DNA of 45,332 nucleotides from the IMG/VR virus record IMGVR_UViG_3300005688_000042, one strand, 5' to 3'. The DNA is from a virus. Its lineage: Duplodnaviria > Heunggongvirae > Uroviricota > Caudoviricetes. Position numbers and translations under genes: made by a program. Below the pieces are notes generated by a model, which was given only the letters and a program-made list of their open reading frames with translations, did no database searches and was not told where the DNA came from. Shown one piece after another: positions 36,227 to 44,934 of the stretch; the first letter of the stretch is position 1, and every line of letters begins with the position of its first letter.

Positions 36227-37180
36227 ATGAAACTTACTGAAATACTGCTTGAATCGATAAACCTAATCAAATACAAAAATCAAGTAGCCGGTATTATTAA
36301 AAAAAGTTTAGAAGAATCATTGAAAGTTCAAGTGCCAGTCGAACCCGGTCAGGATGATGAAGCCCGAGCCATTGTAAACCACCTAAGTGCTAAATTATAT
36401 GGGAAAAGTACTGAAGAGGGGATAGAATTTAATCTTAGATGGTTCTGTGATCAAATCATGGAAAAAGAGGCTGGTGTTTATGATGAACGCGGACCTTATG
36501 AACATATACAAGTAAGTTTTACAGATTCCATTAAAGATCTAGGTCAATGCTATCATAACCATATTTCTCTTAATAGGACAAAACTATTAAAACCATTTTT
36601 AGATACTATTAATGGTGAATATATTGAAAGTGTTGCATCTTCATTTAACACTATTGAAGATTATAATCATGAAGTAAAAAAATATGGAATAAACATAGAT
36701 GTAAATTTGGATGGACCATTTAATAAACTCGTTGATGTGTTATTACATGAAATGGTGCATGCAATACAACATTATAGACAATGGGAAGTCAATAATGTAA
36801 ATGGGCGTCACACTGGTTATACTGAATACAGAAGTTATCTCGAAAAAGACAAAAAAGAATTTCATAAAATGATGAACAGTGACGAATGGACTGACAGAAA
36901 AAATAAAGCATACTATAGTAGCCCACAAGAAATCGCTGCACATGCTCATAATATTAGCCTACAAATCATTAACGACTATGGGGTGGATGATGAATGGGTT
37001 TCTCACCCATCACAACTTGAACTATCTAAGAATGTTAAGACATATTTGAGTCATGTATTTTCACCAGAAGAATTCAAAGATCCGAAAATATCTAAAATCA
37101 TAAATCGTTATTACCGATTAGTATATAAAGAACTTGAAGATTACTTGTCTCATGTGAAGAAAAATAAGGATGATAGATGA
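36227..37180 (+). CDS. zincin-like protein with N-terminal capsid-targeting-like peptide
   Basis: MKLTEILLES; 'LLHEMVHAIQH', 'YYSSPQEIAAHA'; paralog of 44059..44934. Confidence 0.75.
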   Translation: MKLTEILLESINLIKYKNQVAGIIKKSLEESLKVQVPVEPGQDDEARAIVNHLSAKLYGKSTEEGIEFNLRWFCDQIMEKEAGVYDERGPYEHIQVSFTDSIKDLGQCYHNHISLNRTKLLKPFLDTINGEYIESVASSFNTIEDYNHEVKKYGINIDVNLDGPFNKLVDVLLHEMVHAIQHYRQWEVNNVNGRHTGYTEYRSYLEKDKKEFHKMMNSDEWTDRKNKAYYSSPQEIAAHAHNISLQIINDYGVDDEWVSHPSQLELSKNVKTYLSHVFSPEEFKDPKISKIINRYYRLVYKELEDYLSHVKKNKDDR

Positions 37181-37602
37181 AACTATGTAATTTATTTGAA
37201 ATTCAATCCAGTCCTGTGACTTGGGTCTATCCCAATATTGATGACGAGATGAATGAAATTGAAAGAACATCACAAGAACTTGATATAAATTTACAACAAT
37301 TGCTTGATTCTTTTCAACATGCTCGTCTTATTACATTAAATGACACTATATGGTCTAGATTGGATAATACCGATTCCTATGATATTGAACAAGGTGATAT
37401 GGAGTCTGTCACTCATCTATCCTCGCAGTATGGAAAAGATTTACAGAGTATATTAAGAGTTTTTAGTAATGCTGGTAGTCTTCCTGCCCCAATCGTGATG
37501 AAAAGCAATGGTAGGTATTACTTAATTGCTGGTAATACTAGATTGATGGCAGCGAGAGTTCATGGTGTAATTCCTAAAGTGTTATTAGTCGTAGTGACAT
37601 AA
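37177..37602 (+). CDS. ParB/sulfiredoxin-like domain protein
   Basis: MKLCNLFE; 'LPAPIVMK..GRYYLIAGNTRLMAA'. Confidence 0.7.
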   Translation: MKLCNLFEIQSSPVTWVYPNIDDEMNEIERTSQELDINLQQLLDSFQHARLITLNDTIWSRLDNTDSYDIEQGDMESVTHLSSQYGKDLQSILRVFSNAGSLPAPIVMKSNGRYYLIAGNTRLMAARVHGVIPKVLLVVVT

Positions 37603-37623
37603 ATATCTTTATTTGGAATCTAT

Positions 37624-39228
37624 ATGAAAAGTTTTAAACATTATCTTGTTAATAAATTTATACCAGAAGGTGTTAGATCTGGCGCTAGGGACATCAAAGG
37701 ATACAAACCCAAAAAAGAATTTACTGTTGGTTTTGAATTTGAAATAGCAACTCCAGATTTGTCGGATGACGATGATAATGGAGATTCTTGGGAAGAATTT
37801 TCTCAGAATTGGTTTGACAACAATGATGTCTCTGATTGGGATTATTGGGACACTCTTAGTAAACGTGATAAATTAGAAATAATTGACAACTACGGTTTAA
37901 AACCTATCTACGGGTACGGTAAACGGGATGATTATGATGAAAGGCAGGGTTTCTTGGATTTCTATGAACCAACCGAAGAAGACAGTGAAGATGCCGACAA
38001 AGTTCGTCATGGTATAGTTCTGGATGCGGAAGGTGACGAAGTTAATCTGTTATCAATAAAGAATCCTGAAGAATTTTTCGACTTATTTAAACCTAACAAA
38101 TATGATCGTTGGCGCGAAGATTATTATTACGAATATGAACAAGAACAGATGGACGATGCATATCGTGAGTACCTAGACAATAATAAGGGTAAGGGGTCGA
38201 GTGTTAGTTACATACAAGAAGTAATGTCTAAAGCATTAAGAACAAATATAGAAATAGATAGTAATGATTATAGTGAATGGACTTTAGTTAAAGACAGTTC
38301 CATTAGACCTTCTGGCGCAGAATTGCGTTCTCCGGTTCTGTCTCATCATGATGCTATTAACGCTTTACGCACTGTTTTTAATACCATAAAACAAGACAGT
38401 GAACTGGAAACTAATGATAGCACTGGTTTACATGTTAATATCGGTACATTTACTAAAGAAGAAGTCGCAAAACTAGATGTATTAAAATTCTCTCTATTAG
38501 TGGGCGAAGATCATGTACTATCAATGTTCGATAGAGGTGGAAATGATTATACAGAACCTCATATAGAACACGTCATTCAATATTTGAAACAAGAACGTGG
38601 ATTCGATTTTAAAGATTATGAAGCTGCTATTGAATCTATTAATAGAAAAATTATACGTCAAGGTGCAAAATATAGATTTGCGAATATTGGGAAACTATCA
38701 GAAGGTTACATTGAAATTCGTGCTCCGGGTGGAGAAGATTATCATAGAAAATTTGATGAGGTTTCCGAAACTATCAACAGAGTCATGAAATTTTTGGAAA
38801 TTGCTATGGACCCGAATGCCTTTAGAAAAGAATATCTTTCCAAATTATATAAACTACTAGGTGACAGATCAGAAAATAATATCGATGTATTACCAAAGAA
38901 TAGAGAACAGGCCACCGCCAAATCTGCGATAGCATCCATAGAGAAAGATATTGGTAGAGCGTTAGGAAACAAATATTTTACTTTTGGAAATTCCGTATCA
39001 GGAATTATCAGGGCTTTAGTCGAGTTGGGTATTACGCTTAAAAATAATAATAGTGATCCATCTCCTTTATTAAAACACTCTATTGCCATACGAAATTATA
39101 TGAATGAGTTTAAAAAATCTAATCCGCAACTGAAAATGCAAATGCCAGAGGCGAGAGAATACGTGAATAGATCTAAAAACGAAATGGATAAGCGAGTTCA
39201 CGCTTTAATAATGGGATTGCTCAATTAA
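37624..39228 (+). CDS. putative amidoligase (Amidoligase_2 / COOH-NH2 ligase type)
   Basis: 'TVGFEFEI', 'W.LVKDSSI', 'AELRSPVL', 'TNDSTGLHVNI', 'KYRFANI', 'IEIRAPGG'. Confidence 0.85.
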   Translation: MKSFKHYLVNKFIPEGVRSGARDIKGYKPKKEFTVGFEFEIATPDLSDDDDNGDSWEEFSQNWFDNNDVSDWDYWDTLSKRDKLEIIDNYGLKPIYGYGKRDDYDERQGFLDFYEPTEEDSEDADKVRHGIVLDAEGDEVNLLSIKNPEEFFDLFKPNKYDRWREDYYYEYEQEQMDDAYREYLDNNKGKGSSVSYIQEVMSKALRTNIEIDSNDYSEWTLVKDSSIRPSGAELRSPVLSHHDAINALRTVFNTIKQDSELETNDSTGLHVNIGTFTKEEVAKLDVLKFSLLVGEDHVLSMFDRGGNDYTEPHIEHVIQYLKQERGFDFKDYEAAIESINRKIIRQGAKYRFANIGKLSEGYIEIRAPGGEDYHRKFDEVSETINRVMKFLEIAMDPNAFRKEYLSKLYKLLGDRSENNIDVLPKNREQATAKSAIASIEKDIGRALGNKYFTFGNSVSGIIRALVELGITLKNNNSDPSPLLKHSIAIRNYMNEFKKSNPQLKMQMPEAREYVNRSKNEMDKRVHALIMGLLN

Positions 39229-39229
39229 C

Positions 39230-43494: not shown

Positions 43495-43496
43495 GA

Positions 43497-43985
43497 TTAA
43501 TCATATTGAGTTGGCGGTTTAGAATATTGTATTCTATCTTCATTAGCTAATTCTGACATTATAGCAGAAACGAACTTTTTATCAGTTTGCATAAATTGCA
43601 TCAGCTCATTTTTTTGTTGTCCTGATAATGGTAATACTTCATCAGTTTCTACGTCTCTACATTCAAATTTATTATGTTTTACTAATTCAACTATTGTATC
43701 AACAAATAACTTATATTCGTCACGTAGATCAACAACTCCATCTATGTCAATTGTAAAATCATGAAATGCTATGTAAAATGTTTTATCTCCATAAGAAAAA
43801 TCAATCGTTAAAAGCTCTACTTCGACGTCCGTTATATAGTCTTCGTCCTGTTCTGGTGGATCATAATGTGTTCCGGGATAGTATTTACCGGCATACGCAT
43901 TTATTTTTACAACACTGTCACTTCCGACAACTTGTAGGGATTGTGCATTATCCATTTGCTCTAACAAAAATTTTAGAAATTGCAT
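43497..43985 (-). CDS. acidic hypothetical protein with capsid-targeting-like N-terminus
   Basis: MQFLKFLLEQ. Confidence 0.7.
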   Translation of the reverse strand: MQFLKFLLEQMDNAQSLQVVGSDSVVKINAYAGKYYPGTHYDPPEQDEDYITDVEVELLTIDFSYGDKTFYIAFHDFTIDIDGVVDLRDEYKLFVDTIVELVKHNKFECRDVETDEVLPLSGQQKNELMQFMQTDKKFVSAIMSELANEDRIQYSKPPTQYD

Positions 43986-44058
43986 AGCGATTTTCCATAT
44001 ATGATTTTCATTATTTATATCTTAACCAGATAAATATGTACAAATTATGAGCAATAAT

Positions 44059-44934
44059 ATGAGATTTTCACAATTTCTGATAGAACGAATCAGCATGTCC
44101 CATTACAATGAAACTGTGGAAATGGGCGCTGTCGAATGTTGTAAACAAGTAATAGATTCTATTAAATCTGTAAAAAAACAAATATCCACTGAGGCAAGAA
44201 ATGCGGCAGATGATGGCAACTTAAGTCTCTTAATCAAGGAAGTATATGAGGTATTAGTAACCAAGTCTAATTCAATTTTCAGAATAGGCATGGCTAGACA
44301 TATCAATAATAATATACCAGAAATAGATAAGCAAGTCAAAGTGTTTTTCAAACCTATAGACCCGGACAATGGGCAAGCTATCGGTTCTACGGTGACAATA
44401 AATGTCAAATTCATAAATAATATTATTCGTACTTTAGTAAAATTTGTTGCAAATATTGCGTCTAAATCCGGTAATCCGTTTAATGAATTTTTTAATATAA
44501 CGGGTGATGATGTTGATGACAGGTTTGATATATCACAAATTCCATCCTTAGAAGAAATGGTACAAGTGTTTGTGCATGAGTTGGTCCATGTCGTTCAACA
44601 TTTGAAACAGTCTCACCGTGACAAAACAGAATATAGAAGTTACCTAGAAAAAGATACTGAAAAATTTCAAACCGCAATGGCTAAAAAATCTAGTGAAGAT
44701 GACCATTTGTATTATTCAAGCCCACAGGAAATAGCTGCATTTGCACATGACATAGTTTCAAATATATTAAGAAGTATGCAAGGTAAAAATATTTCTCGTC
44801 AGGACATACAAGATGCCGTCAAAGATAGAGTGGGTTCGTATTTTCCAAATAGACAAGATCCAAAAATCAAAAAAGTATATAATAGATACTTGAAATTAGT
44901 ATATCAAGAACTCATGGACAATTTAGGAAAATAA
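44059..44934 (+). CDS. zincin-like protein, paralog of 36227..37180
   Basis: MRFSQFLIER; 'FVHELVHVVQH', 'TEYRSYLEKD', 'YYSSPQEIAAFA', 'DPKI'. Confidence 0.75.
   Translation: MRFSQFLIERISMSHYNETVEMGAVECCKQVIDSIKSVKKQISTEARNAADDGNLSLLIKEVYEVLVTKSNSIFRIGMARHINNNIPEIDKQVKVFFKPIDPDNGQAIGSTVTINVKFINNIIRTLVKFVANIASKSGNPFNEFFNITGDDVDDRFDISQIPSLEEMVQVFVHELVHVVQHLKQSHRDKTEYRSYLEKDTEKFQTAMAKKSSEDDHLYYSSPQEIAAFAHDIVSNILRSMQGKNISRQDIQDAVKDRVGSYFPNRQDPKIKKVYNRYLKLVYQELMDNLGK

Follow-up and report, generated by a model that had tools for sequence, protein, structure and literature searches.

Leaders and putative late promoters of the cluster

We analyzed a window of 45,332 nucleotides from a tailed virus of the Caudoviricetes (IMG/VR virus record IMGVR_UViG_3300005688_000042), which corresponds to the reverse strand of positions 60628 to 105959 of a complete record (306,759 bp; direct terminal repeats). 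Our subject is a cluster of genes at positions 36227 to 44934 of the window, in which eight products start with similar short peptides (here called leaders). The original prediction had read these leaders as capsid-targeting peptides of the kind known from the T4 internal proteins, attached to unrelated enzymes that would be clipped by a prohead protease and ejected into the host. All eight of the N-termini that it quoted are present in the sequence; they are 5 to 15 residues long, and 8/8 end in (L/I)-x-E.

On the plus strand, zincin 1, a 317-residue HExxH protein (36227 to 37180; leader MKLTEILLE, predicted cut after E9), is followed by a ParB/Srx-like protein of 141 residues (37177 to 37602; MKLCNLFE), the start of which overlaps the zincin 1 stop (ATGA), by an Amidoligase_2 protein of 534 residues (37624 to 39228; leader MKSFKHYLVNKFIPE, a core resembling the T4 signal plus a displaced F-I-P-E site), and by p237, a protein of 237 residues without assigned function (39230 to 39943; MKTFTQFLIE). 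Farther along come a small protein-kinase-like protein of 219 residues (41131 to 41790, plus strand; MKLYE, junction E/IFDT, the slash marking the putative cut), the PcfJ-like p366 with a GNAT-like core (366 residues; 41785 to 42885, minus strand; MFLRNLLLE, junction E/SKQSIVNLGFP), the acidic p162 (162 residues; 43497 to 43985, minus strand; MQFLKFLLE), and zincin 2, the other HExxH protein (291 residues; 44059 to 44934, plus strand; MRFSQFLIE). Two of these leaders, MKLYE and MRFSQFLIE, need an internal ATG and not the start of the longest open reading frame (ORF) (TTG at 41119 and ATG at 44047, respectively). Given that the orthologues in the syntenic contig L007 begin at the same place (MKLSE... 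and MKFTQFLIE...) and that the promoter spacing agrees, we take the internal starts at 41131 and 44059 to be correct. The two HExxH proteins turned out to be paralogues (32% identity, E value of 4e-25), so that the eight proteins make up seven families and the description of all of them as unrelated goes too far.

The T4 capsid-targeting sequence (CTS) is MKTYQEFIAE (PMC8442874), as the original prediction had stated; according to amber-suppression work, residues 4 and 7 are the main determinants of capsid targeting, and residues 8 and 10 serve in processing (PMC9026906). Its closest match in the cluster is the p237 leader MKTFTQFLIE, which retains F4, F7, L8, and E10. MRFSQFLIE and MQFLKFLLE keep the targeting and processing residues with one residue fewer, and the amidoligase leader (core, MKSFKHYL) retains F4, Y7, and L8 and has N at position 10, after which comes the second site, F-I-P-E. 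The residues expected at targeting positions 4 and 7 are found in p237, zincin 2, p162, and the amidoligase core, while zincin 1 (MKLTEILLE), p366 (MFLRNLLLE), and the ParB-like protein (MKLCNLFE) have aliphatic versions of the CTS, which match the T4 pattern at these two positions only in part, with aliphatic residues in place of the aromatic ones. In AlphaFold2 (AF2) models of p366 and zincin 1, the first residues are of low confidence.

In order to see how the leaders are distributed over the genome, ca. 439 ORF-derived genes were scanned with a six-position position-specific scoring matrix trained on 47 leaders from other contigs only. A score of ≥10 was reached by nine genes genome-wide, six of them within the 8.7-kb cluster and a seventh being the prohead protease, and by 0.2% of internal Met positions. 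The top score in the genome (15.0) was that of p237, the orthologues of which have the leaders MKTFTQYLIE and MKTFIQYITE. At ≥7.5, the matrix detected 7/12 cluster genes versus 17/427 elsewhere (Fisher p, 3.9e-7); the scores of the cluster proteins are inflated in that some of their orthologues were part of the training set. With the T4 rule taken literally ([LI]-x-E among residues 1 to 16), a test that is free of this flaw, the counts were 10/12 versus 76/427 (Fisher p, 2.5e-6). Both tests single out the cluster, as the tag reading had anticipated. The equally AT-rich neighbors YopX, p59, and CAP202 (see below) do not have the leader pattern.

The source is a complete T4-superfamily jumbo phage. 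A homologue of gp21, which the original prediction had proposed to look for, is encoded in the same genome (here G000; positions 268336 to 268968) as a prohead protease of the Peptidase_S77 family (PF03420, 91.9 bits), together with a Gp23 major capsid protein (PF07068, 303 bits), a portal protein, a tail sheath, a large terminase (TerL), and a head-tail adaptor. T4 gp21 has a site of its own, LIE-9 (PMC9026906), which is paralleled by the N-terminus of this protease, MKNELLIE. The capsid protein is closest to those of the Xanthomonas/Stenotrophomonas jumbo phages XacN1, Xoo-sp13, CM1, and RAS14 (59 to 62% identity, XacN1 being at 62%), followed by RsoM2USA (44%) and PA5oct (36%).

Along with the protease, the original prediction had called for late promoters, and each of the five tagged transcription units has a T4-late-type NATAAATA box 23 to 33 nt before its start. 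On the plus strand, GATAAATA lies at 36203 to 36210 (23 nt before the zincin 1 start), CATAAATA at 37598 to 37605 (25 nt before the amidoligase start), AATAAATA at 41104 to 41111 (26 nt before the kinase-like gene), and a second copy of GATAAATA at 44029 to 44036 (29 nt before the zincin 2 start at 44059). On the minus strand, an exact T4 late-promoter box, TATAAATA, lies at 44012 to 44019, 33 nt before the p162 start. The heptamer ATAAATA occurs six times on both strands of the interval from 35.7 to 45.3 kb, that is, more rarely than in shuffled sequences (9.1 ± 2.7), and 5/6 copies lie 23 to 33 nt upstream of the first genes of the tagged units, on the correct strand. Genome-wide, the box is present within 70 nt of 83/439 genes, mostly 25 to 36 nt from the start, and the same box and spacing precede the sheath, TerL, adaptor, gp22-like, and portal-adjacent genes. 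Judging from these boxes, the tagged genes would be transcribed late.

Homologues of the tagged proteins and their identities

The strongest computational support for reading the leaders as tags comes from relatives of the cluster proteins. Within the p366 family (24 aligned sequences, 32 to 70% identity), the leader varies from 7 to ca. 25 residues, while Glu occupies P1 in 21/24 sequences (20 of those with L, I, or V at P3), S10 is invariant, and the SKQSIVNLGFP segment after the Glu is nearly fixed. Among the 13 homologues of the HExxH family, with identities of 22 to 76%, M1, E9, HExxH, and SPQEI are among the few invariant columns. Hydrophobic-x-E is found in the first 5 to 15 residues of 102/108 amidoligase homologues (with leaders such as MRFKDFILE, MISFKQFLSE, and MKTDQFIAE), compared to 26 to 48/108 in control windows of the same proteins. 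The kinase-like family, for which an exhaustive search yielded 397 cluster representatives, has hydrophobic-x-E within the first 5 to 17 residues in 140 of the best 150. Moreover, one and the same mature N-terminus can follow a long or a short leader, as in MKTFKQFLTE/IFDT and MKLYE/IFDT within the kinase family or in MHLLKNILLIE/TQKNTEREV and MLLTE/QQKNTEREV.

A similar picture emerged when whole loci were compared. The syntenic contigs L007 and L008 retain the tags, and payloads have been gained and lost: extra tagged proteins of 587 to 592, 407, 397, 260, and 216 residues are present, p366 and the CAP/SCP-like protein described below are absent from L007, and the L007 orthologues of p162 and zincin 2 have the leaders MKFLQFLLE and MKFTQFLIE. 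In more distant loci that share p366, unrelated neighbors bear the leader of their own lineage, for example, MIKLK.LL.E or, in another lineage, MKLLLENW.... Within a locus, the leaders of unrelated proteins resembled each other more closely than they did across loci (Mann-Whitney p, 0.0013, or 0.028 when the three closest contigs were left out; the pairs are not independent), as expected for a signal that is read by the head core of each phage. Among p366-bearing large phage records, an S77 protease was present in 3/5, including the only complete one. Single-sequence pattern scans of IMG/VR for zincin 1 and p366 found nothing, and an alignment-based scan was needed.

Three tagged neighbors in the distant loci (L035:13061-14134, L035:11119-13056, and L021:11126-12679, with leaders MMTLKEMLLE, MIKLKLLLE, and MIKLKNILFE) comprise an Acb1-like 2H phosphoesterase (PF23474, 29.8 bits; PF13563, 33.3 bits), a protein with a weak ART-PolyVal match, and a GNAT acetyltransferase. 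The Acb1-like protein, an anti-CBASS-type enzyme, is probably head delivered.

No close relatives of the cluster DNA were found among GenBank phages by megablast, and tblastn searches of cultured phages with zincin 1, p366, p237, the kinase-like protein, and the ParB-like protein gave no matches. The amidoligase was the only cluster protein searched in this way that had a match; its homologues are found in RsoM2USA and in Atu_ph07, where the gene (40.7% identity, E value of 1e-30) lies two genes from the portal gene. The Atu_ph07 homologue is gp196 (57.94 kDa), which has been detected among the virion proteins by mass spectrometry, with 14 unique peptides and 30% coverage (PMC6102473, Table S5). 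We fixed this identity by mass, since the translated homologue has 57.93 kDa and its neighbors match gp195 to gp199 in both order and mass. The N-terminus of gp196, ...KKLTE/LKM..., fits the junction of the amidoligase family.

The portal gene of Atu_ph07 (L003) is flanked by gp197 (87 kDa) and gp199 (9 kDa; MKLTELFNPLTE...), the latter with two L-T-E motifs within its first 12 residues. Both gp197 and gp199 are in the published virion table (PMC6102473).

The identities that the original prediction had given to the payloads are of uneven strength: the amidoligase label proved firm and the ParB/Srx-like and kinase-like labels moderate, while the zincin label comes from motifs and the PcfJ-like label from the fold, with no Pfam match. 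The amidoligase has a PF12224 match of 32.7 bits at residues 209 to 369 (cutoff, 22) and, as its homologues do, a GFEFE motif, here at residue 36. Some of its homologues (P0102 to P0105, P0120, P0133, and P0134) are fused to GGCT/AIG2-like gamma-glutamylcyclotransferase domains and also start with short leaders, e.g., MFLIE and MILADFLAE; these fusions hint at gamma-glutamyl or peptide-bond chemistry for the family. For the ParB-like protein, the best sequence match in the PDB is ParB 4UMK (E value of 0.0039), with ...LIAGNTRL... against ...LIAGERRL... at the GxxR box. Its nearest Atlas clusters are ParB/Sulfiredoxin, and there was no Pfam match. The gene is coupled to that of zincin 1 by a 4-nt overlap, and the pair is kept in L007. 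The kinase-like protein falls with Phage_T7_kinase clusters in the Atlas and has template modeling (TM) scores of 0.50 to 0.66 to Pkinase/APH models. In its family, G33, D195, and R204 are invariant and K49, N200, and D216 nearly so, and D195, K49, N200, and D216 are spaced as kinase catalytic residues. Searches of Pfam and of PDB sequences gave no match for this protein or its family, and a PDB profile search with the alignment gave nothing useful.

For the HExxH proteins, we regard "zincin-like metallopeptidase" as a candidate assignment based on motifs. H174-E175-x-x-H178 and E235 of zincin 1 are invariant across the 13 homologues. Its AF2 model (predicted local distance difference test [pLDDT] score, 76.8) has residues 1 to 7 disordered and a three-strand sheet followed by the HExxH helix (strands at 95 to 116, helices at 164 to 191 and 233 to 251); in the published definition of metallopeptidase (MPTase) domains (Iyer et al. 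2017, PMC5512222), a three-stranded sheet precedes an HExxH helix, and a conserved Glu is located in a helix farther along the chain. Pfam matches of zincin 1 to LPD1, SprT, and M76 were weak and below the cutoff; in fold searches, Foldseek found nothing in the PDB, and the VIA rows covered only C-terminal helices, with no clear zincin match. The p366 model (AF2 pLDDT, 89) matches AlphaFold Database entries that include PcfJ-like ones (E values of 1.8e-3 to 1.7e-2, TM scores of 0.20 to 0.24), and almost all of its VIA rows are GNAT (Z, 5 to 6.7). Foldseek gave no significant match to p366 in the PDB, and no Pfam PcfJ match appeared in the 24 family members at E values up to 1, so the PcfJ-like label is one of modeled fold. 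PDB profile searches with the p366 and zincin alignments yielded nothing useful. Homology searches assigned no function to p237 or to p162, which is very acidic (mature isoelectric point [pI], 4.3).

Interpretation and comparison with known systems

Each check that can be made in silico (gp21 homologue, late promoters, and genome-wide tag scan) came out in favor of the tag-plus-payload interpretation, which is supported. We are fairly confident that the cluster is a variable locus of internal (ejected) proteins, the cargo of which consists mostly of enzymes that are expressed late, led by a CTS, clipped by the S77 protease, loaded into the head, and injected. By analogy with T4, we infer packaging, cleavage, and ejection in the source phage as follows. 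Each tagged gene would be transcribed late from its NATAAATA box, and the leader would dock the protein on the scaffolding core during prohead assembly through hydrophobic or aromatic residues at positions 4 and 7, as in T4 IPIII. The gp21-type S77 protease would then cut after the Glu of (L/I)-x-E, as both the protease gene and the conservation of the junction suggest, and the mature proteins would be retained in the head beside the packaged DNA and exit together with it when the next cell is infected. The cargo would comprise the amidoligase, two HExxH proteins, the ParB/Srx-like protein, the small kinase-like protein, the PcfJ/GNAT-like protein, and two proteins of unassigned function. Given that these payloads overlap the domain repertoire of polyvalent proteins, their role is likely host takeover or counter-defense before phage gene expression.

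Several observations weigh against this interpretation, in addition to the inflated matrix scores. Elsewhere in the genome, 18% of the genes also have [LI]-x-E among their first 16 residues, so that single short leaders, such as MKLYE and MKLCNLFE, mean little alone. MKLYE, the leader of the kinase-like protein, is a minimal one and is devoid of the T4 targeting determinants at positions 4 and 7. Conservation also extends to the residues that immediately follow the Glu, so that part of it at the junction could reflect the mature fold and not a protease site. The long N-terminal helix of the p366 model (H2-16) runs through the putative cut site. Finally, 6/8 mature proteins are acidic or near neutral (pI, 4.3 to 7.2), while T4 IPI to IPIII are small and basic (PMC8442874).

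Some of these observations would also fit ordinary N-termini. In an AT-rich genome such as this one (GC content, 0.358), the 5' ends of highly translated genes could yield amphipathic first helices rich in Lys, Phe, Leu, Ile, and Glu that are part of the fold of each protein, and the products would be intracellular late or middle enzymes that are not packaged; the chance frequency of 18%, the p366 helix running through the site, and the conservation that continues past the Glu can all be read in this way. We consider this explanation unlikely, since YopX, p59, and CAP202 are equally AT rich and lack the pattern, the leader ranges from 5 to 25 residues with the Glu fixed, and the same mature N-terminus bears different leaders. 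The tags also co-occur with S77 genomes and late promoters, and one family member, Atu_ph07 gp196, is physically in virions.

It is even harder to credit that the leaders are propeptides that the HExxH metallopeptidases of the cluster remove in order to activate the enzymes, with no head loading involved. The cluster does encode two such proteins, one of them translationally coupled to the ParB-like gene, and MPTase-mediated processing has been proposed, citing P1 DdrB (Iyer et al. 2017, PMC5512222). However, zincin matches were confined to L006 to L009 among 30 loci, whereas tags are also found in L012, L021, L031, and L035; outside the group of L006 to L009, the one tagged locus with a zincin or amidoligase homologue is L023 (amidoligase). 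Besides, the zincins are themselves tagged, and the site obeys the gp21 rule and is carried by gp21 itself. The presence of an amidoligase, an enzyme that ligates carboxylates to amines, raises the further idea that a modifying enzyme recognizes the leader, either the amidoligase of the cluster, with the conserved Glu as its target, or a maturase of the type acting on ribosomally synthesized and posttranslationally modified peptides (RiPPs). This seems to us highly improbable: the leaders are similar and not identical, the amidoligase is itself tagged, and L023 is the sole other tag-bearing locus with an amidoligase. The RiPP-type version was rejected, as no radical-SAM gene was found in the genome. 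All three explanations are much less likely than an internal protein locus.

Beyond the locus itself, we are evenly divided on a broader reading of the same data, according to which T4-superfamily jumbo phages would carry a rapidly exchangeable cargo of single-domain enzymes, predictable from sequence, that amounts to "unbundled" polyvalent proteins, each loaded by a short leader of its own that coevolves with the head core, and with whole families that are essentially only head-delivered effectors. The cargo would then include kinase, amidoligase, metallopeptidase, ParB/Srx, PcfJ/GNAT-like, Acb1-like 2H, and ADP-ribosyltransferase (ART) proteins, and the small kinase (ca. 400 clusters) and amidoligase families, with 93 to 94% of the sampled members tagged, would be examples of such families.

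The T4 internal proteins are the nearest known counterpart. Their leader has ca. 10 residues (MK-T-aromatic-x-x-F-[I/L]-x-E) and the gp21 site at its end, the head is of the gp21/gp23 type, the promoters are late-type TATAAATA ones, and the payloads have nothing in common but the leader and differ from one related phage to the next, all of which resembles the cluster. On the other hand, the payloads of the cluster are enzyme sized (15 to 60 kDa) and mostly acidic, whereas those of T4 are small, basic, and DNA associated; the leaders of the cluster range from 5 to 15 residues, and that of the amidoligase has a CTS-like core with a displaced cut site. The source is also a distant relative of T4, a 307-kb XacN1-like jumbo phage. 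The T4 ADP-ribosyltransferase Alt likewise travels in the head, loses an N-terminal propeptide of seven residues to gp21 (PMC9026906), and acts on host proteins after its injection; it sets a precedent both for enzymatic cargo and for minimal leaders such as MKLYE. The enzyme classes differ, and no ART was found in the cluster, the tagged L035 protein having a weak ART-PolyVal match.

The domain repertoire of the polyvalent proteins of phages and conjugative elements (PMC5512222) overlaps that of the cluster in the candidate zincin-like MPTase, ParB/Srx-like, and kinase-like domains and that of the related tagged loci in the GNAT, 2H/Acb1-like, and ART domains. Their proposed role is the same, in that they would enter together with the DNA and act early in the conflict with the host, and the domain pair of P1 DdrB (ParB-like plus MPTase) is mirrored by the coupled zincin and ParB-like genes. 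Polyvalent proteins are, however, giant multidomain proteins with MuF, portal, or Dar anchors, while the cluster has separate single-domain proteins with T4-type leaders of their own; each has a single recognizable domain, in place of the fused effector domains that define polyvalent proteins. Amidoligase and PcfJ have no occurrences in the polyvalent-protein paper (PMC5512222). The ejection or inner-body proteins of phiKZ and SPN3US have propeptides cut at S/A-x-E (PMC9026906, PMC5694885). These are also jumbo phages with many head-loaded proteins that a gp21-related protease trims after Glu, but they belong to another phage lineage, P3 is S/A and not L/I, and a short universal N-terminal CTS has not been described for them.

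The principle of tag plus payload is already published for T-even phages: their internal proteins are a diverse set that shares only the CTS (PMC3012670), which may be a general loading route for T4-like phages (PMC3012670, PMC9026906). In the literature that we searched, what is new is the specific enzyme cargo, the small kinase, amidoligase, p366, and HExxH families that are almost always tagged, and the occurrence of polyvalent-protein domain types as separately tagged units. Provided that the leaders function as they do in T4, one could read from the genome of a jumbo phage which proteins it injects, and these would be prime candidates for counter-defense or host takeover because they act before any phage gene is expressed. 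For the unannotated kinase, amidoligase, p366, and HExxH families, this would provide a delivery route and hence a time and place of action, and it would link the T4 CTS/internal-protein system to the effector repertoire of polyvalent proteins, which have been described separately. Such leaders could also extend the T4 protein-packaging toolbox to other phages.

Neighboring genes and further candidates

Two groups of genes within the cluster are outside the tagged set. A block on the minus strand (39930 to 41023) encodes YopX and ORFs of 124, 59, and 70 residues; p124 (MKSALDSQILE) and p70 (...IQLIE) have a weak (L/I)-x-E near the N-terminus. It lies downstream of the best sigma-70-like promoter of the region (TTGACA-17-TATGAT, 41075 to 41047) and resembles an early cassette embedded among late tagged genes. 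The other is an untagged CAP/SCP-like protein of 202 residues with a signal peptide (42886 to 43494, minus strand), within the late p162-p366 operon (PHROG "sporulation protein," 3.5e-7; Pfam CAP, 0.011). Its gene has a GC content of 0.41, compared to 0.32 to 0.34 in its neighbors, and L007 yielded no homologue of it; the gene may have been inserted recently, and its product may be secreted.

The tagged cluster has a GC content of about 0.33 (0.32 to 0.35), and with a genome average of 0.358, we ruled out that it is an AT-rich foreign island. The low-GC stretch spans 44 to 70 kb of the genome, save for values of 0.41 to 0.46 at 50 to 52 kb. The step at ca. 35.7 kb of the window marks the end of an unusually GC-rich early region (0.44 to 0.49; about 16000 to 35700), and it is this early-gene region upstream that is the compositional outlier, given the genome mean. 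A strong terminator-like hairpin (10 bp, 8 of them GC, followed by a T run) is located at 35699 to 35721, at the boundary between 0.44-0.49 and 0.33 GC. Elsewhere in the genome, the head module is split by ca. 9.5 kb of unrelated genes on both strands (258900 to 268300), between the gp21 protease and the gp22-like scaffold plus gp23; among them are a 453-residue ORF and a signal-peptide protein.

Further tag candidates are found outside the window, at 182463 to 183317, 281712 to 283127, 8672 to 9397 together with 7980 to 8669, 52372 to 52770, 54293 to 54916, 124734 to 125354, 170616 to 170900, and 269762 to 270400 of the genome. Candidate leaders there are MKRKSFIQFLSE, MITNFYLIE, MKRFASFLLE beside MLLNE, MKLRQLLE, MLLTE/QQKNTEREV, MKLIE/VFDQ, and MKLNDIILE, and another, MKYLNLFVE, adjoins the portal gene. 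Most of these genes have a NATAAATA box upstream, and no Pfam family was found in those scanned. In total, the phage may encode ca. 15 to 20 tagged proteins.

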